The notes under the pieces are model-generated. The model was not told the origin of the DNA. It did no database searches and saw only the letters and a list, made by a program, of their open reading frames with translations. Below, in pieces: positions 14,433 through 60,581 of a DNA stretch of 64,000 nt. Source of the stretch: Gemmatimonadaceae bacterium. GTDB taxonomy: Bacteria; Gemmatimonadota; Gemmatimonadetes; Gemmatimonadales; Gemmatimonadaceae. The stretch's first letter is position 1. Each line of letters opens with the position of its first letter. The stretch lies in the NCBI GenBank assembly GCA_046704805.1, contig JBJKRG010000248.1:20602-84601 (forward strand). The letters are read 5' to 3'. A program made the position numbers and the translations under genes.

Positions 14433-14434
14433 CC

Positions 14435-15313
14435 ATGACGACCGCAAGGCAACACGTCGGGATCGTCGGCCTCGGTTTGATGGGCGGATCACTTGCCCGC
14501 GATCTGCTCCGCCGCGGGATCGAGGTCACCGCCTACGACACCGGTTTTGCTGATATCGTCGATGGCAGGGACGGGGAATCCGAAGTCGCGCGCATTCGTC
14601 GTGCGCCCGATCTGGCCACAGTGGCGGATGCACCTATCGTCGTCATCGCCGTGCCCGTTCAGACGGCCGTCGACGTCCTCAGCCGCCTGGCCCCCCATCT
14701 CGGCCCCGCCCATCTGGTGATGGACGTCGGAAGCACGAAACGCCACATCGTGGCGAGCGCCGAAGCGCTCGGGCTCGGCGGCCGCTTCGTCGGGTGCCAC
14801 CCGTTGGCCGGCGACCACCGTTCGGGTTGGGCCGCGTCGCGCGCCGGGCTCTTCGACGGAGTTCCGGTCTTTCTCTGTCCCCCGACCGGCGTCGGCAGCG
14901 ACGCCCTGCCACAAGCCGCGGCCTTCTGGGCGGCCCTCGGCGCGTGCCCGGAGGTCATCGACGCCGACACACATGACCGGCGCATGGCGTGGGTGAGTCA
15001 CCTGCCTCACATGCTCAGTGCCGCGCTCTCGCTGGCCCTCGGGGAGGCCGGGCTCACAGTCGACGCGCTCGGTCCCGGTGGCCGCGGCATGACGCGGCTC
15101 GCCGCCAGCTCCCCCGATCTCTGGACCCAGATTGCCGGACAGAATCGTCCTTTCCTGATCGGCACGCTCGACGCCTTCGAGGACCACCTCCGCCACCTGC
15201 GTCGAGCGATCGAGGCCGGTGATCATGCGGATCTCGCGCGGTACCTGGCGGCGGCCGCCGTGTGGACCGGGGCTCGACCGGCGCCGGGTGCCCGTCAGGT
15301 CGACCGGATGTAG
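14435..15313 (+). CDS. tyrA: Prephenate dehydrogenase
   Basis: 292 aa. N-terminal Rossmann GIVGLGLMGGSLARDL, then DVGSTK and HPLAG motifs. Starts 2 nt after the chorismate mutase stop. Confidence 0.85.
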   Translation: MTTARQHVGIVGLGLMGGSLARDLLRRGIEVTAYDTGFADIVDGRDGESEVARIRRAPDLATVADAPIVVIAVPVQTAVDVLSRLAPHLGPAHLVMDVGSTKRHIVASAEALGLGGRFVGCHPLAGDHRSGWAASRAGLFDGVPVFLCPPTGVGSDALPQAAAFWAALGACPEVIDADTHDRRMAWVSHLPHMLSAALSLALGEAGLTVDALGPGGRGMTRLAASSPDLWTQIAGQNRPFLIGTLDAFEDHLRHLRRAIEAGDHADLARYLAAAAVWTGARPAPGARQVDRM

Positions 15314-18285: not shown

Positions 18286-18451
18286 GAGGAAGGCCCGATA
18301 GACCCGTCTCCCCGTCCTACCGGGGATCCAGTACGCCACCACACCTCTGCGTTTGGAATATTTGCGTCACTGATTGCTTGCAGCTATTGCAGCGGATGGC
18401 TGAGAAACTGTAAATTCGATGCTTCCGACGGCACATTTTGGCGTTTTTTTG

Positions 18452-18464
18452 TGCATGTCATGCA
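18452..18464. promoter_or_regulatory. 13-bp perfect palindrome TGCATGtCATGCA upstream of glnN
   Basis: Read directly, in the AT-rich leader about 55 nt before the glnN start. A GTGCAC palindrome follows at 18473. Confidence 0.3.
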
Positions 18465-18519
18465 TTTTTCTGTGCACGTTCCTACAACTCCCGTTCGCCG
18501 TCCTCAACCCGTTTCATCA

Positions 18520-21705: not shown

Positions 21706-23067
21706 TCAGTACTTCCCCAGGTACTCGTCCACCTCCCACCGGCTGACCTGGGAGATATACGCGCGCCATTCCTGCCGCTTGGCGGCCAGGAAATGTTGTG
21801 TCACGTGGTCGCCCAACGCCTCCCGAATCACGGCATCCTTCTCCAGCTCGCGACACGCTTCGTTCAGATCGTGCGGGAGATCGTCGATCCGCAGGCGTCG
21901 TTTCTCGCGGTGCGACATCTCCCAGATGTTCTCGTTCACCGGCTCGCGCCAGTCAATCTTGGTCTCGATCCCGTCCAGGCCCGCGGCGAGCATTGCCGCC
22001 AGCGCGAGGTACGGATTGGCTGAAGGGTCCGGGACCCGGTGCTCGACCCGGGTCCCCGGGCCACGCCGTTCCGGAATGCGGAGCATCGGTGAGCGGTTCC
22101 GCATCGACCACGCGACGTTCACCGGTGCTTCGAACCCGGGGACGAGTCGCTTGTAGGAATTCACCAACGGGTTGGTGATCGCACAGTATCCCCGGGCGTG
22201 CCTGAGGAGCCCCCCGATGTAGTGCAGCGCCGTCTTCGACAGCTCCCACTGTGCCTTCGGATCCCAGAAGGCGTTCTCGGTCCCACGGAACAGCGATTGG
22301 TGCGTGTGCATGCCGCTCCCGTTCTGCCCGTAGATCGGCTTCGGCATGAAGGAGGCGAAGAGGCCGAACTGCTGGGCGACGTACTTCACCACGAATCGGA
22401 ACGTCGCGATGTTGTCCGCCGTCGTCAGCGCGTCGGCGTACCGGAAGTCGATCTCGTGCTGCCCGTGGGCCACTTCGTGGTGTCCCGCCTCGACCTCGAA
22501 TCCCATGCGTTCGAGGGTATCGACGATGCCCCGCCGTGCATCCTCACCGAGGTCCACGGGGGCCAGGTCGAAGTATCCGCCCACGTCGTGCGTGCGGGTC
22601 GTCGCCTCCCCGTCCGGGCCGCGCCGGAACATGAAGAACTCCGCCTCCATCCCCGCGTTCATCGAGAACCCCAGCTTCGCGGCGCGGGCCAGTTGGCGCT
22701 TCAGCACTCCCCGCGGATCTCCTGGAAACGGCGAACCGTCGGGCAGATTGATGTCGCAGATGACCCGGCAGACCCGGCTCTCGGTGTCGGTCCACGGGAA
22801 GACCACGAACGTGGACAGGTCCGGAGCCAGCAACATGTCGGACTCCTCGATGCGGACGAATCCCTCGATCGACGACCCGTCGAACATGATGTCCCCGGCG
22901 AGAGCTTTCTCGAACTGCGACGCCGGAATCTCGACGTTCTTGTTGACGCCCAGGATGTCCGTGAATTGCAGCCGCATGAAGCGAACGTTCAGCCGCGTGG
23001 CGAGCTCGAGGACATCTTTGGCACGAGCACCCGACAGATTGGGTGTGAGCGATCGAGATGGGGGCAT
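21706..23067 (-). CDS. glnA: Glutamine synthetase type I
   Basis: Start re-picked at MPPSRSLTPNL (cat at 23065-23067), giving 453 aa. FMRLQFTDILG, FDGSSIEGF, MPKPIYGQNGSGMHTHQSL and NRSPMLRIP motifs. Confidence 0.9.
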   Translation of the reverse strand: MPPSRSLTPNLSGARAKDVLELATRLNVRFMRLQFTDILGVNKNVEIPASQFEKALAGDIMFDGSSIEGFVRIEESDMLLAPDLSTFVVFPWTDTESRVCRVICDINLPDGSPFPGDPRGVLKRQLARAAKLGFSMNAGMEAEFFMFRRGPDGEATTRTHDVGGYFDLAPVDLGEDARRGIVDTLERMGFEVEAGHHEVAHGQHEIDFRYADALTTADNIATFRFVVKYVAQQFGLFASFMPKPIYGQNGSGMHTHQSLFRGTENAFWDPKAQWELSKTALHYIGGLLRHARGYCAITNPLVNSYKRLVPGFEAPVNVAWSMRNRSPMLRIPERRGPGTRVEHRVPDPSANPYLALAAMLAAGLDGIETKIDWREPVNENIWEMSHREKRRLRIDDLPHDLNEACRELEKDAVIREALGDHVTQHFLAAKRQEWRAYISQVSRWEVDEYLGKY

Positions 23068-23219
23068 GAGCGGAAGTCGAATGCGGAAGAGCCGCCGGAG
23101 AGCCCGGTATGGCGCGTGCGGTTCAAGCTCCCCTGCGCGGCGCGGAATGTCAAAGGGTCCGCAGCGCCCGGGAGGCGCCACCCTCCCCGATGGTCACGCA
23201 GGCGCTAACTTATCCCCCC

Positions 23220-26816: not shown

Positions 26817-26837
26817 CGGAGCGGAACGCTCCAGGCA

Positions 26838-27758
26838 GTGCGGCCGGCGAATCCGTCCGTGATGACCGCCAGGCCCCGCCGGCGCATTGCGCCGCACCGG
26901 GTGACGCTGGATCGCTCGCTCGAGGAGCTTCCGCTGTTCCGACTCAGCGATTCACCGGATGATGTGCCCCTCGTGTTCACCACGGAAGCCGGAGGACGCT
27001 GGCGCGTCCTTCCCCGTCCCGGCGATCGCCTTCCCGGAACCTTCGATCAGGACGTGTACGTCGAGATCATGCGGCGCTTCCAGGAGGCGGGCAATCCCGT
27101 CGACGGCACGCTTCTGTTCACCCTGCACGCCTTCCTTCGTTCGATGGGGCGCCGTGTGGATGGACGCACGTACGAGCTGCTGCGCGCTGCACTCTTCCGG
27201 CTGGAGCGAACCGTTCTCGAGTCCACCGGAGCCTATCGCCTGGCCGGGCGGAACGAGGCGTTCGACGGCCGTCTCACCCTGCTCACGTCCGTATCCATCG
27301 AGCGCCGCCGGGCGGTGGATCGCGATCAACTCCCCCTGTTCGACCCGGCCATGGGTGCCGAGCCCGGCGAGGTCCGGGCGATCGTCGCCCCGTTGATTCG
27401 CGAGAACCTCACGGCCCGGCACGTCGTGACGCTCTCCTTGCCCCGGTATCTGGGCCTGGCCTCGCCAGTGGCCAGGCGGTTGTATCGACTGCTCGAGCTC
27501 GCCCGGGCGGACGGGCGGCTGGTCTGGCGGGTCTCGCTGGAGCGTCTGAAGGAGCTGCTCCCCCTGATGCAGCGCTATCCTTCGCATCTGCAACGAGTTC
27601 TGCAGCCGGCTCACGAGCGGCTGCTGGAATCCGGGGTGATCCGCAGCACGGCGATCCGGCAGGAGCGGCGCCACTGGTACGTCAACTACGTCCTTGGCAG
27701 TCGGGTTCCGTCCGGGGGGCGGGACGGGGTAAACCCCGATCCGGAACGTTCCGAGTGA
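26838..27758 (+). CDS. Replication-initiator-protein-A (RepA/RPA)-like protein
   Basis: Block order LPLFRLSD..., PGTFDQDVYVEIMRRFQEA, GRTYELLRAALFRLERTVLES, LSLPRYLGLASPVARRLYRLLE, WRVSLERLKELLPL parallels plasmid RepA (PF10134-type) proteins. Judged from memory, not from a search. Confidence 0.5.
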   Translation: MRPANPSVMTARPRRRIAPHRVTLDRSLEELPLFRLSDSPDDVPLVFTTEAGGRWRVLPRPGDRLPGTFDQDVYVEIMRRFQEAGNPVDGTLLFTLHAFLRSMGRRVDGRTYELLRAALFRLERTVLESTGAYRLAGRNEAFDGRLTLLTSVSIERRRAVDRDQLPLFDPAMGAEPGEVRAIVAPLIRENLTARHVVTLSLPRYLGLASPVARRLYRLLELARADGRLVWRVSLERLKELLPLMQRYPSHLQRVLQPAHERLLESGVIRSTAIRQERRHWYVNYVLGSRVPSGGRDGVNPDPERSE

Positions 27759-28043: not shown

Positions 28044-29642
28044 ATGAGCCGCTCCCGAAAGTTCGCCGTCGCCGCTGTCGCCCTCATCATCCCGGCTGCT
28101 GTCGGAGGATTCGTCCTCCAATCACGGACGCCGGCCGCCGGCGCGTTGCTTCTCGACCAGGTGCTCTCGCTGGTCTCGGATCACTACGTGGACTCGCTGC
28201 CGCCCGGTGATGTGTATGCGAAGGCCGCCACCGGCCTCGTCCACGAGTTGAACGACCCGTACAGCCAGCTCTTCACGCCCGAGGAGATGAAGAATTTCAC
28301 CACCAATACGAGCGGGCATTACGGTGGGATCGGGATGCAGATCGAGAGCCAGAACGGGATCGTCACGGTGAGCAAGGTGTTCCCCAACACGCCGGCGGAA
28401 GCCGCTGGCGTCGTCGAGGGCGATCAGATCGTCCGGGTCGATACCCTGTCGACGCTCGGCTGGTCCCTGACGCGAACCGCCGATTATCTCACCGGCACGC
28501 CCGGTACCAAGGTGAAGGTGCAGTTCGCCCGCCCCGGGGTCGTCGAGCCCATCGTGGTCGACTTCACCCGTGCCGTGATTCATGTGCCGGCCGTCCCGTA
28601 CTACCTCATGCTGGACGGGAACATCGGGTATATCCCGCTGCAGCAGTTCAACGAAACCGCCGCGCAGGACGTGGCCGACGCCGCTCGTGCACTGCAGAAG
28701 CAGGGCGCGAAAGGGTTCATTCTCGACGAACGGGGGAATCCGGGCGGGTACGTGGACCAGGCGCTGGATCTGAGCGGCCTGTTCCTCAAGAAGGGACAGG
28801 AGATCCTCTCCGTACGCACGCGCGTCGGTCCCCCACAGGTCGACTCCGCGGACGGCACGCCGACATTCGGATCCGTCCCCCTCATCGTGCTCACCGACGG
28901 CGGCACCGCCTCCGCCGCCGAGATCGTGGCCGGCGCGCTGCAGGATCACGACCGGGCGCTGATCGTCGGGCAGACGACGTTCGGAAAGGGGCTGGTGCAA
29001 TCGGTGTACAATCTCGACGACGGGTACGCCCTCAAGCTGACGACGGGCAAGTGGTACACGCCCAGTGGCCGGTCCATCCAGCGGCCACGGAAGGTGGTCG
29101 ACGGACATTTCGTGCCGACCCCACCGGATTCGACGGAGAACCAGGAATCGAAGAAGAAACGGCCGGCGTTCCGCTCCGACGATGGACGCATTGTCTATGG
29201 CGGCGGAGGGATCACCCCCGATGTGATCGTCGCCGACGACACGCTCACGACACCGGAGCAGCGGCTGGCCCGGGCGCTCGCACCGAAGTCGCAGGTGGTG
29301 TATGTCACCCTGTACTCGTTCGCACTCGGGCTCTCGCACCATCTGTCCCGCGGCTTCAAGTACAACCCCGCCTGGCGGGGAGCCTTCATCAAGGATCTGG
29401 AGGCCAAGGGTGTGAAGATCGACCCGAAGCTCTACGCCGCCGCGCCACGGTACCTCGACCGGCTGATCACCGACCGGGTGTCACGCTTCGTCGAGGGCGA
29501 TTCCACCGCCAAGCGCCGTGAGTTGTCGCTCGATGCCCCGCTCGACAGTGCCATGCGGTTGATGGAAAGGGCCAGGACCCAACAGCAGTTGTTCGCCCTT
29601 GCCGACGCGGAGCCGCCGGCCGAGCACCGCAAGAAACCCTGA
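28044..29642 (+). CDS. S41-family C-terminal processing peptidase (PDZ + S41)
   Basis: 532 aa. GIGMQIESQNGIVTVSKVFPNTPAEAAGVVEGDQIV (PDZ), LDERGNPGGYV, TDGGTASAAEIVAGALQD and GQTTFGKGLVQ. Confidence 0.9.
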   Translation: MSRSRKFAVAAVALIIPAAVGGFVLQSRTPAAGALLLDQVLSLVSDHYVDSLPPGDVYAKAATGLVHELNDPYSQLFTPEEMKNFTTNTSGHYGGIGMQIESQNGIVTVSKVFPNTPAEAAGVVEGDQIVRVDTLSTLGWSLTRTADYLTGTPGTKVKVQFARPGVVEPIVVDFTRAVIHVPAVPYYLMLDGNIGYIPLQQFNETAAQDVADAARALQKQGAKGFILDERGNPGGYVDQALDLSGLFLKKGQEILSVRTRVGPPQVDSADGTPTFGSVPLIVLTDGGTASAAEIVAGALQDHDRALIVGQTTFGKGLVQSVYNLDDGYALKLTTGKWYTPSGRSIQRPRKVVDGHFVPTPPDSTENQESKKKRPAFRSDDGRIVYGGGGITPDVIVADDTLTTPEQRLARALAPKSQVVYVTLYSFALGLSHHLSRGFKYNPAWRGAFIKDLEAKGVKIDPKLYAAAPRYLDRLITDRVSRFVEGDSTAKRRELSLDAPLDSAMRLMERARTQQQLFALADAEPPAEHRKKP

Positions 29643-31133: not shown

Positions 31134-32657
31134 ATGGTTCTTGCCGTCACGATCTTCGCGATGCTGGTTGCGCTCGTCACCACGCGGTGGCTGGCGAGGA
31201 TCGCGCCCGCCCAACGTGAGCCGAGTGTGGTCCCCATCACGTATCGTCCGGGCTCCGCGCCGCCGATTCCCCGAGTCGGCGGCGCGGCGGTCTATGTGGC
31301 CATCGTCGTGGCGCTCGGGGCGGCGGCCGCGGTCGGCGCCACCGGCATGGCTCCCATCCTGCGGCGGCCGGAACTCTACGGCGGCATCTTCGGCGGCGCG
31401 ACGCTCCTGCTCGCCGTCGGACTCGCCGACGATTTTCTCGATCTGTCGCCGGCGGTCAAGCTTCTGGCGCAGGGCATGGCCGCGATGTTCGCCGTATCCG
31501 GGGGCCTGTCGCTTCGAGTGATTCAGCTCGACCCGACATCGACGGTTCGCCTGGGGTGGATCGGGGTTCCGCTCACCGGCCTGTGGATCATCGCCGCCAC
31601 CAACACGTTCAACTTCATTGACGGCCTCGACGGGCTGGCCTCCGGCGTCGGCATCATCGGCTTCGCCGCCACGGTGGTCTCGGCGACCATCCTCGGCCAT
31701 GCCGACGTGGTGCTCCTTGGCATGGTGCTCATCGGGGCGCTGGGGGGGTTCCTCCGCCACAACGTCGCGCCGGCCAGGATCTATCTGGGTGATTCCGGCA
31801 GCCTGCTGATCGGCTATCTGCTGGCGACACTCTCGCTGATCGGCGCCACCACGGCTTCCAGCGGCGTCCTCGTCTATGTGCCGATCTTCGCCCTCGCCCT
31901 GCCATTGCTCGACGGCTGGGTCGCGGTCGCGCGCCGCTGGCTCCGGCACATGCCCGTCTGGAAGGGTGACCATCGCCACATTCATCACCGGGTGCAGGCG
32001 CTCGGATTCGGCAAGCGGCAGAGCGTGCTCCTGCTCATCGGGGCCGCCGCACTGTTCGCGCTCGTCGGCGAGTTGATGGCGTTCGCTAATCCGGCGCTCT
32101 TCTCCTCTTCGGCCGTCGTGTTCACGCTGGGCGTCACGGTGATCGGGACGTCGCTGGGCCTCGGCCGCCTGGATTATTACGAATTCGCCGCGGTCCGGAC
32201 GGCGTGGGCGCGCCGGGTCCCGGCGTGGCGCCGGTTCGTTCGGGAGGAGATCCGCCTGCGCGATGCCGAACGTGAGTTGGCGACCGCCCGCGATCTCAAC
32301 GACCTGCGGACCGGGCTGGATCGATGTGCGCTGGCGTTCGGCCTCGACCGCGTGGAGATTTCCCGTCAGCGCCCGCGCCTGCGGCGTACCTGGCACGGGC
32401 AGTACGTCGACATCCTCGTCACGGCATCCGACTCGGCAGGCAACGACGATTGGGTTCTCCGCGTCTGGTATGGTGAGTACGATTCACCCCGACCTGATCT
32501 GGTGCAGCGTGCGGCGCGGGTTCTGGCCCGCGCGTGCGGCACGTGGCTGCACGAGTACGGCCTGCTGGCCGCCCCGGCCAGGGCGCCAGTCCAGCGCCGC
32601 GCGGTCCATGAGGGACCGACTCTCCCGCGGTCGCATCGCCACCTCGTCAAGGCGTAG
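31134..32657 (+). CDS. WecA/MraY-family polyprenyl-phosphate sugar-1-phosphate transferase with about 170-aa C-terminal extension
   Basis: ADDFLDL, NTFNFIDGLDGLASG, GDSGSLLIGY and HIHHRV motifs, followed by a soluble Arg-rich C-terminal region of unknown function. Confidence 0.85.
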   Translation: MVLAVTIFAMLVALVTTRWLARIAPAQREPSVVPITYRPGSAPPIPRVGGAAVYVAIVVALGAAAAVGATGMAPILRRPELYGGIFGGATLLLAVGLADDFLDLSPAVKLLAQGMAAMFAVSGGLSLRVIQLDPTSTVRLGWIGVPLTGLWIIAATNTFNFIDGLDGLASGVGIIGFAATVVSATILGHADVVLLGMVLIGALGGFLRHNVAPARIYLGDSGSLLIGYLLATLSLIGATTASSGVLVYVPIFALALPLLDGWVAVARRWLRHMPVWKGDHRHIHHRVQALGFGKRQSVLLLIGAAALFALVGELMAFANPALFSSSAVVFTLGVTVIGTSLGLGRLDYYEFAAVRTAWARRVPAWRRFVREEIRLRDAERELATARDLNDLRTGLDRCALAFGLDRVEISRQRPRLRRTWHGQYVDILVTASDSAGNDDWVLRVWYGEYDSPRPDLVQRAARVLARACGTWLHEYGLLAAPARAPVQRRAVHEGPTLPRSHRHLVKA

Positions 32658-32663
32658 CTCACG

Positions 32664-32978
32664 ATGTGCGAGGGCGTGGCGGTGAGCACCGTCACACTCC
32701 TGTCGCGCGTCTCGGCGACGGCGGACCTGCTCGTCAGCGAACTTTCCGGGGAAATGGTGCTACTGAATCCCGGGGACGGCGTATACTATGGCTTGGATGC
32801 CGTGGGTGCCCACATCTGGCATCTGCTCGAAGTACCGTGCGACGTGGGGACGATCGTCGACGACGTCCTGGCGCACTACGAGATCGACCGGACGCGATGC
32901 GAGCATGACGTACTCACGTTTCTCCGGGAGTTGCACGCGCACGGGCTCGTGTCGGTGCTCGCGGCCGGTGCCGACTGA
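32664..32978 (+). CDS. PqqD-family protein (RiPP recognition element / lasso B1-like)
   Basis: 104 aa. VSELSGEMVLLNPGDGVYYGLDAVGAHIWHLLEVPCDVGTIVDDVLAHYEIDRTRCEHDVLTFLRELHAHGLV is a textbook PqqD fold pattern. Starts 7 nt after the WecA-like stop. Confidence 0.85.
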   Translation: MCEGVAVSTVTLLSRVSATADLLVSELSGEMVLLNPGDGVYYGLDAVGAHIWHLLEVPCDVGTIVDDVLAHYEIDRTRCEHDVLTFLRELHAHGLVSVLAAGAD

Positions 32979-33005
32979 ACGGGCCGCGAGAGGCATGAGC
33001 ACGCC

Positions 33006-34892
33006 GTGAGCGGGTTCGTCGGCCTCCTCTCCCTCGACGGGTCGGCCATCGATCCACGCGTGCTGCATCGGCTCACCGACGCCCTCGCCTACTTCGCGCC
33101 GGATGGTGCGGCAGCCCGCGCGAGTGGGCCGATCGGCCTCGGGTTTGCAGCACTCCGCACCACCCGGCCGGGTCCGGACGAACGCAACGCGCCGGCACCG
33201 ATGCCCACCTCCGACGGCCACGGCAGCTGGATCGTCGCCGACGCCATGCTCGACGACCGCGAGCAGCTGGTGCGTGACCTCGGCCTCGCCGGTGTCCGGG
33301 TCGACCCGCAGGACAGCGACGCCGACTTGCTGCTCGGCGCCTACCGGGCGTGGGGGACGCGGTGTGCGCAGCACGTCCACGGTGACTTCTCGTTCGCGCT
33401 GTGGGACACGGACCGGCGTCGGCTGCTGCTGGCACGCGATCGATTTGGCATGCGACCGCTGTACTACGGCCGTGCCGGCAGAACGCTCGTCTTCTCGAAT
33501 GCCCTCGACGTCGTCCGCGCGCACCCGCGCATGTCCTCGGACCTGGACGCCGCTGCGATCGGTGACTTCCTGCGCCTGGGCCTGAACACGGACCTCGAAA
33601 CCACCACCTTCGCCGACGTGGCCTGTGTGCCGCCCGCGCACGCGTTCGTCGTGACCGAAGATGCCACCCGGCTCGTGAGCTACTGGGAGCTGCCGGTCGG
33701 CCGACCGCTTTCCTATCGCCGGGTCGAGGAATACGCCGAGCATTTCACCGAGGTCTTCAGTGCGGCGGTCTCCGATCGCCTCCGGGGACTCGACGACGCC
33801 GTGATCATGATGAGCGGCGGCCGGGATTCGACGGCGGTGGCCGCCATGGCCCGGTCGGCCGGCCGGCCGGCGTCGACCCACCTGCACGCCGTGACGGCGG
33901 TGTACGATTACGCACTTCCCGACGAGGAACGGGTCCATGCGGCGCTCGCCGCGGCGGCGCTCGACATCCCGGTGGAGTTCGTACCGCAGGACGAGTACCG
34001 GTGGTTCGAGGACTGGGATCGCGAGGATCTGTGGCGGCCGGAGCCCGTGGAGGCGCCGCTGCTGGCCGCTGATGCCGACCTCGCCGACCGCGCGGCTGCT
34101 ACGGCTCGTGTCGGGCTCTCGGGAGACGGCGGGGATGCGGCTCTTCGCGAGCGCGAATCGCATCTGGCCCAGTTGCTGCTCTCGGGACGGTGGGTGCAGG
34201 CGGCGACCGAATCGCTCACGTACGTGCGGTGGCACCGTCGGCTTCCGCGGCCCGGATTCCGGCGGCTGCGTGCCCGGCAGCGCGGTCTGACGTCACCCAG
34301 GCCGCCGGCCCCACCATGGCTGCGCACCGACCTGATCGACCGGACCGGGCTCCGGGCTCGCTGGGCCGCGTTGGAAGCCGAGGACGGACGCCTTCCGACC
34401 GGGGTCGGGCGTCCGGAAGCCTACGCGAAGCTCCGGTCGGAGTTCTGGCCCCGCTGCTTCGAGGCGGATCACGCCGGAGCGATCGGTATTCCCCTGGTGA
34501 TGCGGCATCCGTTCTTCGACGAGCGCGTCGTCGAGTTCCTGCTTTCCCTGCCCACCGAACAGTGGGCCAACGACAAGGGGATTCTCGTGGCTGCCATGCG
34601 GGGTCGCCTTCCCGACCGCGTTCGCCTGCGCCCGAAGACGCCGCTCGTCGGCGACTGCTACGACCTGGCGTTCACGGCTGCCGGATCACCCCGGCCCGGT
34701 CGGGACGCATTCTGCGAGGAAGCCCTCGAGTACGTCGATCCCGACGCCCTGTTCACGGTGACACCGGACATGGATCCGTCGGATGCGTGGGACTGGACGC
34801 GCGCCTACAGCCTCTCGCTCTGGCTGTCGCGGCGTGCCGTCGGCCGGCGTCCGAGACGCGTCCGGGCAGAGATCGCATTCGAAGTGAGTTGA
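33006..34892 (+). CDS. Asparagine-synthetase-like adenylating enzyme (lasso cyclase-type, C protein)
   Basis: 628 aa, GTG start. N-terminal Ntn-like domain (DFSFALWDTDRRRLLLARDRFGMRPLYY) but begins MSG rather than MCG. PP-loop MMSGGRDSTAVAAMA. Confidence 0.8.
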   Translation: MSGFVGLLSLDGSAIDPRVLHRLTDALAYFAPDGAAARASGPIGLGFAALRTTRPGPDERNAPAPMPTSDGHGSWIVADAMLDDREQLVRDLGLAGVRVDPQDSDADLLLGAYRAWGTRCAQHVHGDFSFALWDTDRRRLLLARDRFGMRPLYYGRAGRTLVFSNALDVVRAHPRMSSDLDAAAIGDFLRLGLNTDLETTTFADVACVPPAHAFVVTEDATRLVSYWELPVGRPLSYRRVEEYAEHFTEVFSAAVSDRLRGLDDAVIMMSGGRDSTAVAAMARSAGRPASTHLHAVTAVYDYALPDEERVHAALAAAALDIPVEFVPQDEYRWFEDWDREDLWRPEPVEAPLLAADADLADRAAATARVGLSGDGGDAALRERESHLAQLLLSGRWVQAATESLTYVRWHRRLPRPGFRRLRARQRGLTSPRPPAPPWLRTDLIDRTGLRARWAALEAEDGRLPTGVGRPEAYAKLRSEFWPRCFEADHAGAIGIPLVMRHPFFDERVVEFLLSLPTEQWANDKGILVAAMRGRLPDRVRLRPKTPLVGDCYDLAFTAAGSPRPGRDAFCEEALEYVDPDALFTVTPDMDPSDAWDWTRAYSLSLWLSRRAVGRRPRRVRAEIAFEVS

Positions 34893-34958
34893 CGCGCCCC
34901 CACCCGTGATCCCGATCACATGGGGGCCTGCCCGATGCCATTATCGTCGACGCATATC

Positions 34959-34964
34959 TATAAT
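34959..34964 (+). promoter_or_regulatory. Consensus -10 hexamer TATAAT, 5 nt upstream of the precursor ATG
   Basis: Read directly. No SD between it and the ATG at 34970. No good -35 box seen. Confidence 0.3.
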
Positions 34965-34969
34965 CCAGC

Positions 34970-35173
34970 ATGCGGCATCCAATCGCATCGATCCCTCCGG
35001 GTTCGCCCGACGCTCTTCAACCGGTGACGCCGACGCCGTCCGCGCCATCCGACAAGCGGCCGTATGGGACGCCGATCCTCACGGCGTACGGATCGATCGC
35101 CGACCTCACGCGTCTCGTGGGGCCGCGGGGCAAGAAGGACGCGCAACGAGGGCCCCGGCGGACGGGGTTCTAG
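34970..35173 (+). CDS. Candidate lasso-peptide precursor (A peptide)
   Basis: 67 codons in the cyclase-kinase gap, with high GC3. Leader segment YGTPILTAYGSIADLTR fits YxxPxLx3Gx5Tx. Predicted core LVGPRGKKDAQRGPRRTGF has a single acidic residue, at position 9. Confidence 0.6.
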   Translation: MRHPIASIPPGSPDALQPVTPTPSAPSDKRPYGTPILTAYGSIADLTRLVGPRGKKDAQRGPRRTGF

Positions 35174-35316
35174 CTCGAAGCCATCGGCATCCGGATGGTC
35201 GATCCCGAGTCGTCGCGCGAACGGGCACTGACGACAACGGGAGCGGCGCGCAGGACCGGCCTCACCTCGCTGCACTGTCGCGACGCGGCTGCGCTGCGTA
35301 TCGTCCCGGCATCCTC

Positions 35317-36297
35317 ATGTTCTCGTTCACGTCTCGTGCATTCGGCCTCGGCATCGCGGCTGATGCTCCGGTTCCCGGCCTCGTGCCGACAGGAATCACC
35401 CATGTGGATCTGCACATTCACATGGGTCGCCTGCCTGACTCGCTCGAAACCGGAACACGACGGCTCCCGGAGATCTGGCGTTCTCCATCCGACGCGGACA
35501 CCCAGGGAGACGTGGTCACGATGCGGGCGAGCCCCGAGGGCGCCTTGCTCGTGCTCGAGTATGGTGACGGTACACGCTTCGCGTTGAGCCGACGGGGCGA
35601 TGAAGTCTGGGTGGGATGGCCCGAGGGGATTCCGGCTGCCGTGGCTGCGACATATCTCGCCGGCCCGGTGCTGGGATTTGCGCTGCGTCTTCGGGGCATC
35701 ACCTGTCTCCACGCGAGTGTGGCCGTCCTCGGCGGCCGGGCCGTGCTGTTCGTCGGGCCAGCCGGGATGGGAAAGTCCACCATCGCAGCGGCGCTCGCGC
35801 TCCGCGGGCACCGCGTGATCGCGGACGACATTGCCGCCCTCACCCACGCGCATGACGCGTGGATGGTCCAACCGGCGGTGCCCGGGCTCCGCTTGTGGGA
35901 CGATTCGGTCGAGCTGCTGCTCGGACGACGTGACGCTCTGCCGCTCATGGCACCGGGTTGGGACAAACGGCTGTTCGATCTCCAGTCGACGCCGGTGGGA
36001 TTTCATCCCGAGCATCCCGTTCCCCTCGGGCTGATCTACGTTCTCGATGACGACGGGACGGCCCCCGGTGCATCCGTCCGGCTCGGCGGGCGTGACGCAC
36101 TCATGGCGCTCGTCGCGAATACCTACGCGAACGTCCTGCTCGATGCCGATGCACGCCGGTCCGAGTTCGTGGAGGTCTCGGCGCTCGTCCGGGACGTACC
36201 GGTTCGCCGGATCACCGTGCCGCGGGACGGGCCCACTCTTGCGGCCTTCGCCGCCGTCATCGAACGCCAGGGCGACCATGACGCAGCGCGCGACTGA
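35317..36297 (+). CDS. HPr-kinase-related P-loop kinase
   Basis: Start re-picked at MFSFTSRAFG. LHASVAVLGGRAVLFVGPAGMGKSTIAAALALRGHRVIADD matches the HprK C-terminal domain (Walker A GxxGxGKS). Confidence 0.75.
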   Translation: MFSFTSRAFGLGIAADAPVPGLVPTGITHVDLHIHMGRLPDSLETGTRRLPEIWRSPSDADTQGDVVTMRASPEGALLVLEYGDGTRFALSRRGDEVWVGWPEGIPAAVAATYLAGPVLGFALRLRGITCLHASVAVLGGRAVLFVGPAGMGKSTIAAALALRGHRVIADDIAALTHAHDAWMVQPAVPGLRLWDDSVELLLGRRDALPLMAPGWDKRLFDLQSTPVGFHPEHPVPLGLIYVLDDDGTAPGASVRLGGRDALMALVANTYANVLLDADARRSEFVEVSALVRDVPVRRITVPRDGPTLAAFAAVIERQGDHDAARD

Positions 36298-37483
36298 CAG
36301 TCTGGAGGGCCTCGCCCCGTTACCTCGCCTGCTGTGCGCGTGTGCCGGCCCGCCCGACGTCGTGCCGGGCATCGGGCCGTCGACACTGTCGTTGCCGGAA
36401 CGGATCGAGTGGGCGGCGGTGCCATCCCAGTTGGTGCGGCACGGACTTCCCGTTCTCGGGGCAGCCTACCTGGCGCCGGCGTCCGATCGCATGCCCGCGT
36501 CCGTGTGGGGGGAGATCCAGGAGAATGCCCTGTTGGCACGGGCGACGGGGCTCGCCATGGCCGGAGAATTGCTTCGCGTCCTGGCGGCAGCCGCCGAGCG
36601 GGGCCTCCGCGTGCTTCCCTATAAGGGGCCCCTGCTCGCCTGGGAAGCCTACGGCGACCTTGGGGCGCGCCCCTTCGTGGATCTGGATCTGCTCTGTGCT
36701 CCCGGCGATGTCGACGCTCTGTTGGACGTGCTCCGGACGCTTGGCTACGCCGCTCTGCACCGGCTCTCGCCTGCTCGGGACGCCTGGTTCCGGCGGGTCG
36801 ACGGCGACTATCAGATGGTCCATGAAGACACGAGTACCCTGCTCGAAGTCCATACTCGGGCGCTGTCGCTCCGGCTCGCCCCCGGGCCGCCGGTCGCCGC
36901 GCTCTGGGAGCGTCGTCGGACGGTGGTCGTGTCGGGACAATCCATCACGGTGCTCGGCGCGGACGATCAGCTCTACCTGCAACTCGTTCACGGAGCCAAG
37001 CATCGATGGGAACGGCTCGAGTGGGTCGGAGCCACCGGCGCGCTGCTCCGCCGACGCCGTGGCGACGTCATGGCCCTGAAGGGCCCCGCCTATCCCGACA
37101 GCCGGGCCGTGGAGCTGGGCTGCCTGCTGGCGCACCAGCTCGTCGACGCTCCGCTCGCCCCCCGTATCGCCGGCACCGCGGAGATCGATCCCGTCGTGCA
37201 CCGTCTGGTCCTCGCGGCACGCCACCACCTCTTCGCGGAGCGGACGCCCGACGATCGCGCCGAAACGGCTGGAAAGCTCTGGTTCAACCTGCGCCTGCAG
37301 CGCGGGGTCCGCGCCCGGCTGCAGTTCCTGTATCGATGGATGGTGTGGCCCTCGCCCGAAGACTGGGCGGCGATTTCGCTCCCCGACCCCCTCTTCATCT
37401 GCTATCGCCTGCTCCGGCCGCTCCGTTTGCTGGGCCGGTATCTCGGACTGGCGGGCGCCCGCATGCGGAGCGTCGGTGGCTGA
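36278..37483 (+). CDS. Uncharacterised nucleotidyltransferase (NTP_transf_5-like)
   Basis: Start at MTQRATDSLEG (20-nt overlap with the kinase gene). LRVLPYKGPLLAWEAYGDLGARPFVDLDLLCAPGDVDALLDVLRTLGY and a C-terminal LFICYRLLRPLRLL segment. Confidence 0.7.
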   Translation: MTQRATDSLEGLAPLPRLLCACAGPPDVVPGIGPSTLSLPERIEWAAVPSQLVRHGLPVLGAAYLAPASDRMPASVWGEIQENALLARATGLAMAGELLRVLAAAAERGLRVLPYKGPLLAWEAYGDLGARPFVDLDLLCAPGDVDALLDVLRTLGYAALHRLSPARDAWFRRVDGDYQMVHEDTSTLLEVHTRALSLRLAPGPPVAALWERRRTVVVSGQSITVLGADDQLYLQLVHGAKHRWERLEWVGATGALLRRRRGDVMALKGPAYPDSRAVELGCLLAHQLVDAPLAPRIAGTAEIDPVVHRLVLAARHHLFAERTPDDRAETAGKLWFNLRLQRGVRARLQFLYRWMVWPSPEDWAAISLPDPLFICYRLLRPLRLLGRYLGLAGARMRSVGG

Positions 37484-39224
37484 GCGTTTCCTGCCCGCGC
37501 TTCGCACCCTGACGGGTCGTCTGCTGTCGGGGCAGCGGTGGCGCACGATCGGAGTGCTCGCCCTCATGATCGCGAATACCGTCGTGCAGGGAGCGACGGT
37601 GGCGCTGTTGATCCCGTTGCTGCACGCCGCCGGTGTCCCCACCGGCACGGGGGCCGTGGCGGCCGTCGACCGCGTGATCGCGGCGATGTTCCATGCGGTG
37701 GGCCTCGCACCCAGCCTCCCGGCGGTGCTGGCGCTCTTCGTGGCAGCGGCCTGGGCCCAGGCCACGCTCGAGCATCTGGAGCTTGTGGAGACCGCGTGGG
37801 TGGAGCAGGGGTTGGTGCGCGATCTGCGCGAAGCGCTGTACCGGCAGCTGTTGGCGGCACGGTGGCAGTTCTTCACTGAACGGCGCGGGTCCGACCTCAC
37901 GCATGCGGTCACCCGGGACACTGATCGGGCCGGAGCGGCGGTCGGCTACCTGCTGCGCGGAATCGCTCAATGCGGCAGCGTGGTCGTGTACGGAGCGCTC
38001 GCCATCGCGGTCTCTCCGATGGCGTCAGCGGTGGCGCTCGCCGGTGGCGCCGTCCTGGCGCTCGTGTTGCGCCAGACGTTCCGCTCCGCACACGCCACCG
38101 GGGAGGCGCTCGGCCTCGTGTCGGCCGATACGCTGGCCCTCGTGTCCCAGCACGTCGAGGCGATCAAGCTCGTGAAGAGCTACGGCGCCGAGGCGCGGGC
38201 GCTCGACGCCTTCGGCGCGATCGCCGACCAGTCCGCCCAGTCAGCGGTCGACGCGACCCGCGCACACGCCCGGGCCCATGTGGCGACCATCGCCGGCTCG
38301 GCCACCCTGCTGGGTGTCGTCGTCTTCGTCGCCCTGAGGACCCTGCATCTCGGCGCCGCCACGACGCTCGTGTTGGCATTCCTGTTCTGGCGGCTCGTGC
38401 CGCGGCTGATGGACGTCCAGCAGAGCATCCGCTTCGCGGTGCACGAGTTGCCCGGGTTTGAGGTTGTGCAGGGCCTGCTCCGGGCTTCGGACGAGGCACG
38501 GGAGACCCCCGCCGAGGCGGCAGCGGTGCCGGCGGTCGGACGGCTGGCGATCCGGAGTGGTGTGGAGTTCGACCACGTCTCCTTCGCCTACGGAGCGGCT
38601 CCGGTTCTGACCGACGCGTGCTTCGCCGTACCGGCCGGGCGAATCACGGCCTTCACCGGCCCTTCGGGGGTGGGAAAGACCACGCTGGTGGACCTCATGC
38701 TGGGGCTGCTGACGCCCTCGTCCGGCTCCATCCGCATCGACGGAGCACCGCTGAGCGCCGCCATGCTCCCACGCTGGCGGGCCGCCGTGGCCTACGTGCC
38801 GCAGGACGCCCTGCTCTTCCACGATACGATTCTCGCCAATCTGCGCTGGGCGAAGCCCGACGCCACCGTCTCTCAGGTCTGGGAAGCCCTGCGGGCCGCC
38901 GCTGCCGAGGATTTCGTCCGCGAGCTGCCTCAGGCCCTCGACACCGTGATCGGGGACCGCGGCGTTCGTCTCTCTGGCGGTGAACGCCAGCGCCTGGCCC
39001 TCGCCCGCGCGCTGCTACGCGAACCCGCACTCCTCGTCCTGGACGAGGCCACGAGCGCGGTCGACGCCGAGAGCGAAGCCCATATCCTGCAAGCCCTCGA
39101 GGCCGTGCGGGGATCGATCACGATCGTGCTCGTCAGCCACCGGGCGGAACCCGTAAGACGCGCCGATCTGGTCTACGTGTTGGAGGCCGGCACCGTCGGC
39201 CGTCAGCCCTCGGACGCCGTGTAG
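37476..39224 (+). CDS. ABC exporter, fused permease-ATPase (McjD/MsbA-type)
   Basis: 582 aa, GTG start overlapping the upstream stop (GTGGCTGA). 6-TM N-half. Walker A GPSGVGKTT, signature LSGGERQRLALARALL, Walker B LLVLDEATSAVD. Confidence 0.9.
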   Translation: MAERFLPALRTLTGRLLSGQRWRTIGVLALMIANTVVQGATVALLIPLLHAAGVPTGTGAVAAVDRVIAAMFHAVGLAPSLPAVLALFVAAAWAQATLEHLELVETAWVEQGLVRDLREALYRQLLAARWQFFTERRGSDLTHAVTRDTDRAGAAVGYLLRGIAQCGSVVVYGALAIAVSPMASAVALAGGAVLALVLRQTFRSAHATGEALGLVSADTLALVSQHVEAIKLVKSYGAEARALDAFGAIADQSAQSAVDATRAHARAHVATIAGSATLLGVVVFVALRTLHLGAATTLVLAFLFWRLVPRLMDVQQSIRFAVHELPGFEVVQGLLRASDEARETPAEAAAVPAVGRLAIRSGVEFDHVSFAYGAAPVLTDACFAVPAGRITAFTGPSGVGKTTLVDLMLGLLTPSSGSIRIDGAPLSAAMLPRWRAAVAYVPQDALLFHDTILANLRWAKPDATVSQVWEALRAAAAEDFVRELPQALDTVIGDRGVRLSGGERQRLALARALLREPALLVLDEATSAVDAESEAHILQALEAVRGSITIVLVSHRAEPVRRADLVYVLEAGTVGRQPSDAV

Positions 39225-41671
39225 CCGTACCCGTAGTAGTAGTTGCCGTAGCGCCCGTAGCGGGGGGTGCGCGCGTCGGGATCGTTGAGCACGGCCCCCA
39301 GCATCCGGCCCCCCAGATGTCCGATCTGCTCGACCGCATGGCGCGCCGCTACTCGCTCCGACTTCCCGGCGCGGACCACGAGCACGACTCCGTCCGCCTG
39401 AACACCCATCAGCGCCGCGTCCGCCGTCACAAGGACCGGTGGCGTATCGATGAGGACCACGTCGAATCGCTCCCGCAGGGTCGCGAGCAGATCGCGCATG
39501 CGCTCACCCCCCAGGAACTCCAGTGGGTTCGGAGGGAGCGTTCCAGCGGGAATGACGCTCAGCCCCGCGATTCCCGACGGGCGGACACCCTGTTCGAGGG
39601 TCGCGTTTCCGACCAGCATGTCGGTGAGTCCCGGCTCCATGCCGAGACCGAATACATCGTGGATTCGCGCACGCCGCAGATCGGCGTCGACGAGCACGAC
39701 GTGTCGGCCCTGCTGGGCGAAGGCCACGGCCAGGTTGGCGACCGTGGTCGTCTTCCCCTCGCCCGCCGAAGCACTCGTGACCACGACCACGCGCAGCCCG
39801 GGGCGTGAGGCCGAGTACATGAGGTTGGTCATCAGCTTCCGGTACGATTCGGCGCTGGCGGACCGTACGTCGTTCACCATCACCAACTCGCTGCCGACCT
39901 CGTCGCTGAGCACCCCGCGCTGCGGGACGAGTCTGGGCAGCAGGTGGTGCGCGGTGCCGCGCAGGCGGCTCGGCCACCCCTGTCTCTGATCGCCGGCGAT
40001 CTGCGGGATCAGGCCCAGCCCGGGTACGCGCATGACCGATTCCAGGTCTTCCCACCGCCGTACGCTGCTGTTCAGCCGGTCGGTGACCACGGTGAGACCG
40101 ATGCCGAGCAGCAACCCGAGGAACGCTCCATACGTCAGCTTCCGCTTTCGCCCGGCGCCGATCGAGGCGCTCGGAAATTGCGCCAGGTCGACGATCTGGA
40201 CCTGCCCCGTCTCCACGGCTTCCGAGATCTTCGCGACCTGCAACTCGTCATTGAGCTTGTCCGACATCTTCAGGATGTTGTCGGCATCTCGCTGCAACCG
40301 CTGCTCCGTCTCCTCCACGCCCGGGATTGCGGCGATCTCCTGGGTGCGATGCGCCCGCAGGCTGTCGACGGCTGCGATCTCGCCTTCCACATTGGCGAGC
40401 TGATTCTGGACAGCCGTGCGTAGCTGCGGCTCGGTCGCCGTGATCAGCGCATCCACGCGCTCCACGGCCGGGTGCTTGGCGGTCCGGGCGAACAGACCCG
40501 TCGTCAGGGAGTCACGCGTGTGCTCGTACTGGGCGAGCTCGGTGTACAGCATGTTGATCGACGCGTTGCCCGCCGGATTGACCACGAACGCCATCGTACG
40601 CAGAGCCGTGGAATCTCCCTGCTCGTAGCGCCGTAGCTCGCCGAGCAGGGACTGGTAGGTTGCGCGCGACTCGTGCAGGGTCTGCGCCTGTGTGTTGAGG
40701 GCCGCCAGGTCCGCCTGCTCGGCGTTGTACTTGTCCTGCGCGCTGAGGGCGAGCGTGCGGCGACGGTACGCGGCGAGTTTGGCCTGGGCGATCGCCAGCA
40801 GCGAGTCGGTCGTCGTGAGCTGGCTCTCGATGAAGATGCGCCGTCGGTGGGACTGCTGCCGCGCCGCTTCGGCATTCTCTGCCTTGAACACCTCGGCGAC
40901 TTCGCTGGCCACCGCCTGGGCCGTGTAGGGGTCGTCGCAGGTGTACGTGATGTCGATCACCGAGGTCATATCCCGCGGCTTCGCCGTGAGGCTGGCCAGC
41001 AGCCCGTCGGCCGCCACGTCCTGCGACACGACGTCGAGCACTGCCGTCGCGACCCTCGGACTGGCGCGCACCGTGAAGGTCACCCCGCCCGTCGTGACCG
41101 GCGTTCCATAGTCGCCGATGATCGAGTCCCGCTCGCTGTACACCACGAAGTGCGACGGGGCGAATCGCAGGTTCAGTGTGGTCGTCGCCGCATCGAGCGC
41201 GACATGAACGTGCTCCAGCGCCCCCACGTGGAAGTCGGGCGTGCGGCTCTGCAGCCGGAGGCCCAGCGAATCCACCACCCGGTCGGCAATGATCCGGCTC
41301 TTGATCACCTGCACCTGGGTAAGGATCGGGTCGGTGTAGCCACCGAATCCGCCGTTGTAGTCCGGCACCAGGTTCCCGCTCATCGCGGCGCCCTGATCGG
41401 TCAGGCGAACCGCGCTCGCAGCACGATAGAGCGGAAGGTCGTCCCGCACCCGGTACCACTGATACCCGATCGCTCCGGCGGTCGTGAGGAGGATGATCCA
41501 CCAGTAGCGCCGGATGATGGAGAGATACTGGCGCAGCGGATTCGGCTCGGCGTTGGACGAGTCGGTGCCGAATCCCTGGTAGTTCCCCCCGCCCGGCGGA
41601 TAGGGGATCGCGGGGAGGCTGCTGCCCTCCCGGGGACGGCTTACGCCCATGGACGGTTTATGCTCCGACAC
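39203..41671 (-). CDS. Polysaccharide co-polymerase / tyrosine autokinase (Wzc/GumC-type)
   Basis: 822 aa. Wzz-like N-domain with coiled coil, P-loop VTSASAGEGKTT, Walker B VLIDTPPV, and a Tyr-rich tail YGRYGNYYYGYGY. GTG start preceded by GGAGGA. Confidence 0.9.
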   Translation of the reverse strand: MSEHKPSMGVSRPREGSSLPAIPYPPGGGNYQGFGTDSSNAEPNPLRQYLSIIRRYWWIILLTTAGAIGYQWYRVRDDLPLYRAASAVRLTDQGAAMSGNLVPDYNGGFGGYTDPILTQVQVIKSRIIADRVVDSLGLRLQSRTPDFHVGALEHVHVALDAATTTLNLRFAPSHFVVYSERDSIIGDYGTPVTTGGVTFTVRASPRVATAVLDVVSQDVAADGLLASLTAKPRDMTSVIDITYTCDDPYTAQAVASEVAEVFKAENAEAARQQSHRRRIFIESQLTTTDSLLAIAQAKLAAYRRRTLALSAQDKYNAEQADLAALNTQAQTLHESRATYQSLLGELRRYEQGDSTALRTMAFVVNPAGNASINMLYTELAQYEHTRDSLTTGLFARTAKHPAVERVDALITATEPQLRTAVQNQLANVEGEIAAVDSLRAHRTQEIAAIPGVEETEQRLQRDADNILKMSDKLNDELQVAKISEAVETGQVQIVDLAQFPSASIGAGRKRKLTYGAFLGLLLGIGLTVVTDRLNSSVRRWEDLESVMRVPGLGLIPQIAGDQRQGWPSRLRGTAHHLLPRLVPQRGVLSDEVGSELVMVNDVRSASAESYRKLMTNLMYSASRPGLRVVVVTSASAGEGKTTTVANLAVAFAQQGRHVVLVDADLRRARIHDVFGLGMEPGLTDMLVGNATLEQGVRPSGIAGLSVIPAGTLPPNPLEFLGGERMRDLLATLRERFDVVLIDTPPVLVTADAALMGVQADGVVLVVRAGKSERVAARHAVEQIGHLGGRMLGAVLNDPDARTPRYGRYGNYYYGYGYTASEG

Positions 41672-60537: not shown

Positions 60538-60581
60538 GTTCGCGCGGAAGGGTGAAGATCGTGCACCAGTATAGCACGCCG

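Follow-up and report, generated by a model that had tools for sequence, protein, structure and literature searches.

Lasso biosynthesis is taught as requiring a precursor peptide (A), a B protein (B1 and B2) and a cyclase (C). What, then, are we to make of a locus that keeps a lasso-type leader, the B1 protein that would bind it and a cyclase, that adds a peptide kinase, and that has no gene for the peptidase expected to cut the leader away? The question arises in a stretch of 64,000 nucleotides from a Gemmatimonadaceae bacterium (GenBank assembly GCA_046704805.1, contig JBJKRG010000248.1, positions 20,602 to 84,601 of the forward strand), here called the window, from whose first letter all coordinates are counted. 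An initial annotation had recognised in it a lasso precursor encoded at 34970-35173 on the + strand. We find it quite probable, on comparative grounds, that this open reading frame (ORF) is the precursor of a class II-type lasso peptide, a peptide synthesised on the ribosome and altered after its translation (a RiPP), made by a B1-C-A-K-N-D module, where K stands for the kinase, N for an NTP_transf_5 protein and D for an exporter. The locus is a genuine, uncharacterised variant of the kinase-associated lasso peptides, and not a new kind of system. The main import of the precursor is that its cluster has a kinase and no leader-cutting protease, and that it sits inside a polysaccharide-synthesis locus; neither the absent B2 leader peptidase nor this exopolysaccharide (EPS) setting figured in the initial annotation.

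A precursor gene under purifying selection

The gene (34970..35173, +, 67 codons and a stop) translates into exactly the peptide first annotated, and three parts can be told apart in it. Residues 1-31 (34970..35062) form a leader segment rich in proline, serine and alanine, which differs in length and in sequence across the family. Residues 32-48 (35063..35113), YGTPILTAYGSIADLTR, constitute the recognition motif: with Tyr-17, Pro-14, Leu-12, Gly-8 and Thr-2 they agree with the lasso leader pattern YxxPxLx3Gx5Tx at every position, as had been claimed, and a translation of the window in all six frames contains this strict motif only once, in the precursor itself, for a chance level of 0.01 (mean over 200 dinucleotide-preserving shuffles). 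The last 19 residues, LVGPRGKKDAQRGPRRTGF (35114..35170), make up the predicted core, of net charge +5, in which a recount returned the six basic residues already reported, one acidic residue, Asp9 (codon 35138-35140), the predicted ring acceptor, and one hydroxyl residue, Thr17 (codon 35162-35164), the candidate phospho-acceptor.

A contig from a soil metagenome (L001) carries a copy of the precursor, P0001, which is 79% identical, and this pair allows selection to be followed along the gene. Nei-Gojobori estimates of the ratio of non-synonymous to synonymous change (omega) are 0.25 for the whole ORF, 0.29 for residues 1-28, where the synonymous divergence (dS) is 0.62, and 0.04 for the core (residues 49-67), where dS is about 0.6; between the two core DNAs there are seven synonymous substitutions and a single non-synonymous one, the conservative Gln11Lys. 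Among the other five frames at this place omega exceeds 1 in three, two of which also contain stop codons, while frame -1, with an omega of 0.36, is broken by stop codons. Purifying selection is confined to the annotated frame and is strongest in the core. The omega values and stops of the alternative frames indicate that two longer overlapping ORFs, 34906-36297 and 34958-35275, are not coding here, and the idea of a chance ORF was set aside in view of the selection acting on the frame and of the unique occurrence of the motif in the window.

A word-indexed search with the single precursor gave one relative only, and an exhaustive phmmer search followed by a profile search was required: the former, over 1.84 billion cluster representatives, returned about 20 small-peptide relatives (two of its matches, P0004 and P0016, are false positives, being TPR/repeat proteins), and the latter about 55 members of the family. 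NCBI already names one of the relatives 'lasso RiPP family leader peptide-containing protein [Gemmatimonadota]'. The NCBIfam model lasso_cyano (NF033528) is matched by 19 of 21 relatives at E<=0.01 (best 5e-8); the window precursor matches it over residues 29-57 with 32.4 bits and E 6.8e-8, just under the curated cutoff of 33, and is a borderline relative of that family, not a member by NCBI's rule. Four contigs from metagenome-assembled genomes (MAGs) of Gemmatimonadaceae (L002-L005) have cyclases about 70% identical to that of the window and share the order S41 peptidase, (epimerase), GT4 glycosyltransferase, PqqD, C, A, K, N, D; their Wzz/BY-kinase and GT1 genes are read from the other strand. 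In these four the leader ends in LTA before the core SGGRFGKHDKAVKHSRTGF (L002), in LTA before AGGRKGKNDKAVKHSRTGF (L003), in LTD before AVGRKGRKDMSGSRKTGF (L004) and in FTS before SGGSVGKKDKAIKKSRTGF (L005). A small ORF is kept between cyclase and kinase in eight related loci (L002-L005, L009, L017-L019), which bears out its conservation in syntenic clusters; in L020 the motif search, the only search made there, gave no precursor ORF. Four of the eight syntenic loci are genome-derived, all of them Gemmatimonadaceae MAGs.

Where does the core begin, and how would its ring close? The register Y-17/P-14/L-12/G-8/T-2 is exact only if cleavage follows Arg48. In an alignment of 21 homologous small ORFs, Tyr-17, Pro-14, Gly-8 and Thr-2 are invariant, as are Gly3, Gly6 and Asp9 of the core; Leu-12, Tyr-9 and the Thr-Gly near the C-terminus come close to invariance, and core position 1 may be L, T, N, Q, R, A or S. 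Because Thr-2 and Asp9 do not vary while position 1 does, the comparison places the junction after residue 48 and supports a ring from residue 1 to Asp9, that is Leu1-Asp9 in the window, as the initial annotation had proposed when it singled out the sole acidic residue of the core. In the 74 distinct cores of the fetched loci, nearly all of which adjoin kinases of the window's kinase clade, the acidic residue (Asp or Glu) lies at position 9 in 55, at position 10 in 13 and at position 8 in six. Glycine is the commonest ring-forming first residue of lasso peptides, and rings of seven residues are known, as in the xanthomonins. A Gly3-Asp9 ring of seven residues, following cleavage after Val50, would profit from the invariance of Gly51 (core Gly3) in the 21-member alignment, residues 49-50 being variable there. 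This ring would however move the threonine to position -4 and lose the leader register, while the glycine at position 3 is not kept once the wider family of kinase-associated cores is considered (AVDMMGAAD, TAQRAMSAD, LAQKAPRAD), the spacing from Thr(-2) to Asp is kept in most cores, and more distant relatives carry G or A straight after 'LTx'. We hold the Gly3-Asp9 ring to be very unlikely, in agreement with the earlier judgement that it fits the motif less well. The precedent that had been invoked for a leucine at position 1 exists: citrulassin N has a Leu1-Asp8 ring (PMC12971885).

Upstream of the gene a promoter-like site, ATGCCA-18 nt-TATAAT (34935..34964, +), agrees with the consensus at 10 of 12 positions, where 0.1 such sites are expected in shuffled sequence, and just upstream of it lies a perfect palindrome, GTGATC-CC-GATCAC (34906-34919). 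Both are kept in L001, and neither is found in more distant loci. As the -10 box stops 5 nt short of the precursor ATG, in a site retained in L001, and with no Shine-Dalgarno sequence visible, this arrangement suggests a leaderless or near-leaderless messenger under the control of an operator. Downstream of the precursor one finds neither an intrinsic terminator nor an RNA structure of unusual stability (z = 0.5).

The family also shows variations on the theme of the precursor. Four members (P0006, P0009, P0012, P0019) have two leader-plus-core units in tandem within one ORF. In L007, L008 and L016, precursors of the RRTG[FY] subfamily stand as orphans between Peptidase_M28 and CopD genes, with no cyclase within 6-10 kb, and these genomes seem to carry extra precursors apart from the biosynthetic module. 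Many metagenomic proteins of about 120 residues (P0066-P0095) join a lasso-type leader and core (YxxPTLTVYGSVxELTG followed by xxSGxxxGD) to a C-terminal Peptidase_S74 domain (PF13884), a self-cleaving chaperone domain; they may be lasso precursors with a C-terminus freed by autoproteolysis.

Leader removal in a cluster with no B2 gene

There is no B2 leader peptidase in the window, nor in eight syntenic loci. Among the approximately 50 ORFs of the window none has a Pfam match to Transglut_core3 (PF13471), and a search of the window with a single B2 sequence gave no match. A hidden Markov model (HMM) of B2 was seeded with the protein of L015, a locus of Citreimonas which represents a classic proteobacterial relative with the order N-D-C-A-K-B1-B2, and iterated until it comprised 28 sequences from sister clusters, whose catalytic Cys and His can be recognised. 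This model detects B2 in 27 other loci, the weakest significant match having an E-value of 3e-9; among the six-frame ORFs of the window no match is better than E = 53, and L002-L005, L018-L020 and the sister-clade loci that were checked have none better than E = 0.6. A B2 gene may lie elsewhere in the genome, beyond the 64-kb window.

These results split the loci of the kinase clade into three architectures: class I with B1 and B2 (for example L022, L028, L061), class II with B1 only (the window, L002-L005, L018-L020) and class III with neither (for example L042, L052, L060). Where the kinase gene is flanked by 7 kb or more on both sides, as it is in 21 loci, the cyclase is present in all 21, B1 in 16, B2 in eight, the NTP_transf_5 protein in 17 and the ABC exporter in 12. 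The architecture with no B2 is kept in L018-L020, the kinases of which are only 50-54% identical to that of the window. The class III loci belong to a sister clade (L011-L013, L042, L052, L060 and others) recognised by the leader YSKPxLTVYGTVRELTQ and by cores that end in KTHV, KTSF or RTSI, where a cyclase, a kinase and a precursor overlapping the cyclase stop are found with neither PqqD nor B2. In L011 and L013 of this clade the kinase gene is followed by a gene for a DUF7948/SBBP protein of more than 1000 residues (the copy of L012 runs off its contig), the NTP_transf_5 gene is on the opposite strand and, in L013, Poly_export and Wzy_C genes adjoin the cluster.

Could another protein of the locus take the place of B2? 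The N-terminal domain of the kinase, about 100 residues that the kinase of L015 lacks (the two are 30% identical over the C-terminal 190 residues), was rejected as a substitute, for it is also found in clusters that have B2; a domain fused to the NTP_transf_5 or to the GT4 protein was rejected in turn, with no match to the B2 model. There remained an S41 C-terminal-processing peptidase with PDZ domains, encoded upstream of the module at 28044-29642 (+). It too was dismissed: its N-terminal signal or anchor makes it probably extracytoplasmic, which is incompatible with an ATP-dependent cyclisation in the cytoplasm. Its distribution is nevertheless striking, as it stands upstream in 8/8 B1-only loci (the window, L002-L005, L018-L020) and is absent from all other loci collected, and the precursors of the loci that bear it, and only these, have T-G-[FY] as their last residues, a sequence reminiscent of a class-I PDZ ligand ([S/T]-x-hydrophobic-COOH). 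It is conceivable that the peptidase and the peptide interact through PDZ domains in the periplasm after export; inherited synteny is the simpler explanation.

That leader removal need not be tied to a dedicated peptidase has a precedent in pseudomycoidin, the lasso of which forms with host proteases when the B proteins are absent (PMC6993621), and a B-less cyanobacterial cluster composed of cyclase, precursor, kinase and glycosyltransferase has been noted as well (PMC6993621).

Enzymes of the module, the phosphate acceptor and a proposed order of events

The + strand genes from 31134 to 39224, seven in number, are all intact, closely spaced or overlapping. Both neighbours named in the initial annotation were recovered as family matches, the PqqD protein at 32664-32978 and the HprK-like kinase at 35317-36297. 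The former, 104 residues (+), is a leader-binding B1 protein of the type known as a RiPP recognition element (RRE), with 74 bits for Pfam PqqD and 75.4 bits for NCBIfam lasso_PqqD_Bac (cutoff 80); its matches in the Protein Data Bank (PDB) are TbiB1 (5v1u, E 1e-12) and 9x90_B, a 'lasso peptide biosynthesis PqqD family chaperone' (E 2e-13). The cyclase (33006..34892, +, 628 residues) has the Pfam domains GATase_7 and Asn_synthase of an asparagine synthase-like enzyme; an exact-sequence look-up found no identical record for it. Its best NCBIfam match is lass_lactam_cya, with 296 bits for a cutoff of 525, while eps_aminotran_1, the EPS amidotransferase of XrtA/PEP-CTERM systems, reaches 149 bits, half of that score. 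It begins with (f)Met-Ser-Gly, not Met-Cys-Gly, and because serine replaces cysteine at position 2 the glutaminase nucleophile is missing; the PP-loop, SGGRDS, is retained. The lower score for the amidotransferase family and the absence of Cys2 led us to rule out an EPS amidotransferase.

The kinase (35317..36297, +, 326 residues, starting with MFSFTSRAFG) matches Pfam Hpr_kinase_C with 31.9 bits, and in a profile of six orthologues its histidine, its Walker A motif GxxGxGKS and its IADD motif align to HprK/P of L. casei (1jb1). The end of its gene is overlapped by that of the NTP_transf_5 protein (36278..37483, +; PF14907, 120.8 bits), which shares its Pfam family with PsmN of pseudomycoidin, a likeness at family level. 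The latter gene is overlapped at its end by that of the ABC exporter (37476..39224, +), a fusion of permease and ATPase (Pfam ABC_membrane and ABC_tran; 284 bits for NCBIfam HepA_fam_ABC, below its cutoff). L004 has an additional gene between kinase and NTP_transf_5 (about 13350-14640, +), for a class I methyltransferase of the S-adenosylmethionine-dependent kind, which resembles a protein arginine methyltransferase (VMVDLGAGPGLF... motif) and adjoins a core rich in arginine and lysine.

On which residue would the kinase act? The conserved acceptor of lasso kinases is a C-terminal serine (PMC8498205, PMC9266682), and the window core has no such residue, as had been remarked before. This proves typical of the clade, since only two of the 74 cores end in serine. 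A threonine lies within the last four residues in 70 of them, preceded by K or R in 57, and is itself the final residue in 13; in the subfamily of the window the tail reads [RK]-T-G-[FY], and the window peptide ends in RRTGF. With a C-proximal threonine in 70/74 cores and serine at the end of only two, Thr17, which the initial annotation had singled out as the only hydroxyl residue of the core, is likely the phospho-acceptor, and this is the most economical reading. An alternative or additional role would be structural, with R16 and F19 as plugs flanking a small Thr-Gly segment within the ring. The clade abounds in metagenomes from the environment, the matches listed including more than 553 relatives. 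It was the kinase alignment that served to collect related loci, the precursor alignment having no conserved stretch of 7-10 columns.

Seen against what has been described, the locus is close to paeninodin and the phosphorylated lasso peptides of the ThcoK/SyanK type, with which it shares an HprK-like kinase gene beside the precursor, a split B protein with PqqD/B1, an ABC exporter and, with paeninodin, a predicted nine-membered ring closed on Asp9. It departs from them in having no C-terminal serine, the conserved hydroxyl being a threonine two to four residues from the end, and no B2 gene; paeninodin is moreover acidic, whereas the window core is strongly cationic (+5). Pseudomycoidin, from Bacillus pseudomycoides, which is phosphoglycosylated by PsmK and PsmN, likewise combines a kinase and an NTP_transf_5 protein in one cluster and provides the experimental precedent for lasso formation without B proteins. 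Its psm cluster however has genes for both B1 and B2, which it can do without, whereas the window locus has no B2; its acceptor is a C-terminal serine, its host one of the Bacillota, and it has no EPS context. The B-less cluster of Stanieria cyanosphaera PCC 7437 (Zyubko 2019) also has a cyclase, a precursor, a PsmK-like kinase, a glycosyltransferase nearby and no leader peptidase, and it is the cyanobacterial models lasso_cyano and lass_lactam_cya that best match the window precursor and cyclase. Here the differences are that the window keeps PqqD/B1, that it belongs to another lineage and that its scores are under the cutoffs, the comparison with the cyanobacterial system being drawn from its description and from these models. 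Citrulassins share the use of a leucine at core position 1 to form the macrolactam, while being an unrelated actinobacterial family with an eight-membered ring, no kinase and canonical B1 and B2.

From these relationships we infer the following chemistry and, with it, the lasso topology. The 67-residue peptide would be expressed, probably under a promoter of its own just ahead of the gene, and PqqD/B1, by homology to TbiB1, would bind the YxxPxL part of its leader. The kinase would phosphorylate the linear precursor at Thr65 (core Thr17, in the R-T-G-F tail), and the NTP_transf_5 protein may add a hexose or a nucleotide to the phosphate; both steps are proposed by analogy with paeninodin and pseudomycoidin and from comparative conservation. 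A protease encoded outside the cluster would cut the leader between Arg48 and Leu49, whereupon the cyclase would adenylate the side chain of Asp57 (core Asp9) and join it to the alpha-amine of Leu49. The expected product is a nine-residue macrolactam with a tail of ten residues, held presumably by Arg16 and Phe19 (or modified Thr17) as plugs around the Thr-Gly segment, and the ABC transporter would export this +5 cationic molecule. Predicted masses are 2077.18 Da for the core minus H2O, 2157.14 Da with HPO3, and 2319.20 Da with HPO3 and a hexose.

Exopolysaccharide setting and what the locus may mean

The module heads an EPS locus some 30 kb in length, which runs from an epimerase gene (30017) to Poly_export (59887-60684) and contains, besides these and a GT4 gene, a Wzz/BY-kinase, many GT1 and GT2 glycosyltransferases, a methyltransferase and Wzy_C. 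The GT4 gene (31134..32657, +; Pfam Glycos_transf_4, 122.7 bits) encodes a polyprenyl-phosphate sugar-phosphate transferase of the WecA/MraY type and ends 7 nt before that of PqqD, an adjacency seen in all eight B1-only loci; it is possibly co-transcribed with the lasso module. On the other side, the gene of the Wzz/BY-kinase chain-length regulator (39203..41671, -; Pfam Wzz, GNVR, AAA_31) is the first of a convergent exopolysaccharide block that reaches Poly_export. Of the 21 well-flanked loci, some of which are near-duplicates, so that the effective number is lower, 15 have a full-length Wzz/BY-kinase no more than 10 kb from the lasso kinase, and the linkage spans all three architecture classes, with kinases only about 40% identical. 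By estimate, not computation, this is far above the chance level set by one to a few Wzz/BY-kinase genes per genome. Among the papers searched, none was found to report this EPS linkage or this kinase clade. Such conserved placement within an exopolysaccharide locus suggests that the product has a role related to the cell surface or to the matrix, instead of an antibiotic one or besides it.

At the outer border of the region, just upstream of the S41 peptidase gene, an ORF at 26817-27758 (+) has a 67-bit match to Replication initiator protein A (PF10134), and the ORFs ahead of it match no family; it could represent what is left of a mobile element. Farther out, two glutamine synthetase genes, GSIII (18286-20733, +) and GSI (21706-23193, -), are nearly adjacent, with a DUF4412 gene between them.

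This setting invites an account with no threaded lasso at all. The leader would be retained, the cyclase would activate Asp57 for attack by the side chain of a lysine or by an amino sugar, or else the phosphate on threonine would link the peptide to a glycan, and the peptide would be a component, a primer or a regulator of the EPS. That all eight B1-only loci lack B2, and that the sister clade lacks both B1 and B2, would then cease to be a difficulty; the WecA-type transferase so close to PqqD, the Wzz/BY-kinase and the glycosyltransferases flanking the module, and the persistence of the Wzz/BY-kinase linkage among such divergent kinases would find a direct explanation, and proteins of the PsmN type have indeed been linked to the addition of a hexose on a phosphate (PMC6993621). 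Yet the canonical spacing of the leader, the invariant Thr-2 and the Asp at +9 are what cyclisation from the N-terminus to Asp9 predicts; B1 and B2 do occur in sister clusters that have the same kinase and comparable precursors; pseudomycoidin can form its lasso with host proteases when the B proteins are absent; and the cyclase resembles lasso cyclases more than it does the EPS amidotransferases. We consider the account with no lasso unlikely. Less plausible again is the idea of a decaying remnant, where B2 has been lost, nothing is produced and the ORF owes its conservation solely to recent shared descent. It would be in keeping with the missing B2 and with the scores of precursor and cyclase under the curated cutoffs; it agrees poorly with an omega of 0.04 in a core where synonymous sites have diverged to about 0.6, with seven intact genes tightly packed or overlapping, with the persistence of the B2-less architecture as far as L018-L020, and with the kept catalytic motifs of the kinase and PP-loop of the cyclase. 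We give it hardly any credence.

The lasso precursor thus remains the reading that we prefer, and several observations weigh against it. Neither the window nor the eight syntenic loci have a B2 leader peptidase, and because none was found leader removal, a defining step of lasso maturation, is without an assigned enzyme. Precursor and cyclase both fall under the curated NCBIfam cutoffs (32.4 vs 33 and 296 vs 525 bits). Core position 1 admits an unusually wide choice of residues (T, N, Q, K, R, L, A, S), and characterised lasso cyclases are usually strict at that position. Finally, characterised lasso kinases use a C-terminal serine (PMC8498205, PMC9266682), which the window core does not have.

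We may venture a broader picture, which we offer as a speculation and think unlikely on present evidence: the locus would belong to a large, overlooked metagenomic clade of kinase-linked lasso modules which have dispensed with B2 (and, in the sister group, with B1 too), which modify a C-proximal threonine and which are integrated into EPS synthesis, the product being a cationic lasso phosphorylated or phosphoglycosylated on threonine, or a peptide-glycan conjugate, in the biology of the matrix or the capsule. Irrespective of this picture, the matter is of moderate interest to specialists, on account of the B1-keeping, B2-less architecture, of a threonine acceptor in place of the C-terminal serine and of the linkage to EPS. 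Here is a conserved and selected family of clusters which keeps the leader motif and the RRE with no protease gene, hence a natural test case for leader removal and cyclisation uncoupled from B2, where pseudomycoidin had only hinted at independence from B2, under heterologous conditions. Genome-mining rules that demand B2 would miss such clusters. The C-proximal [KR]-Thr offers a concrete candidate acceptor for a large clade of lasso kinases and departs from the rule of the C-terminal serine, while the repeated linkage to Wzz/BY-kinase loci suggests that these lasso peptides have a role beyond antibiosis.

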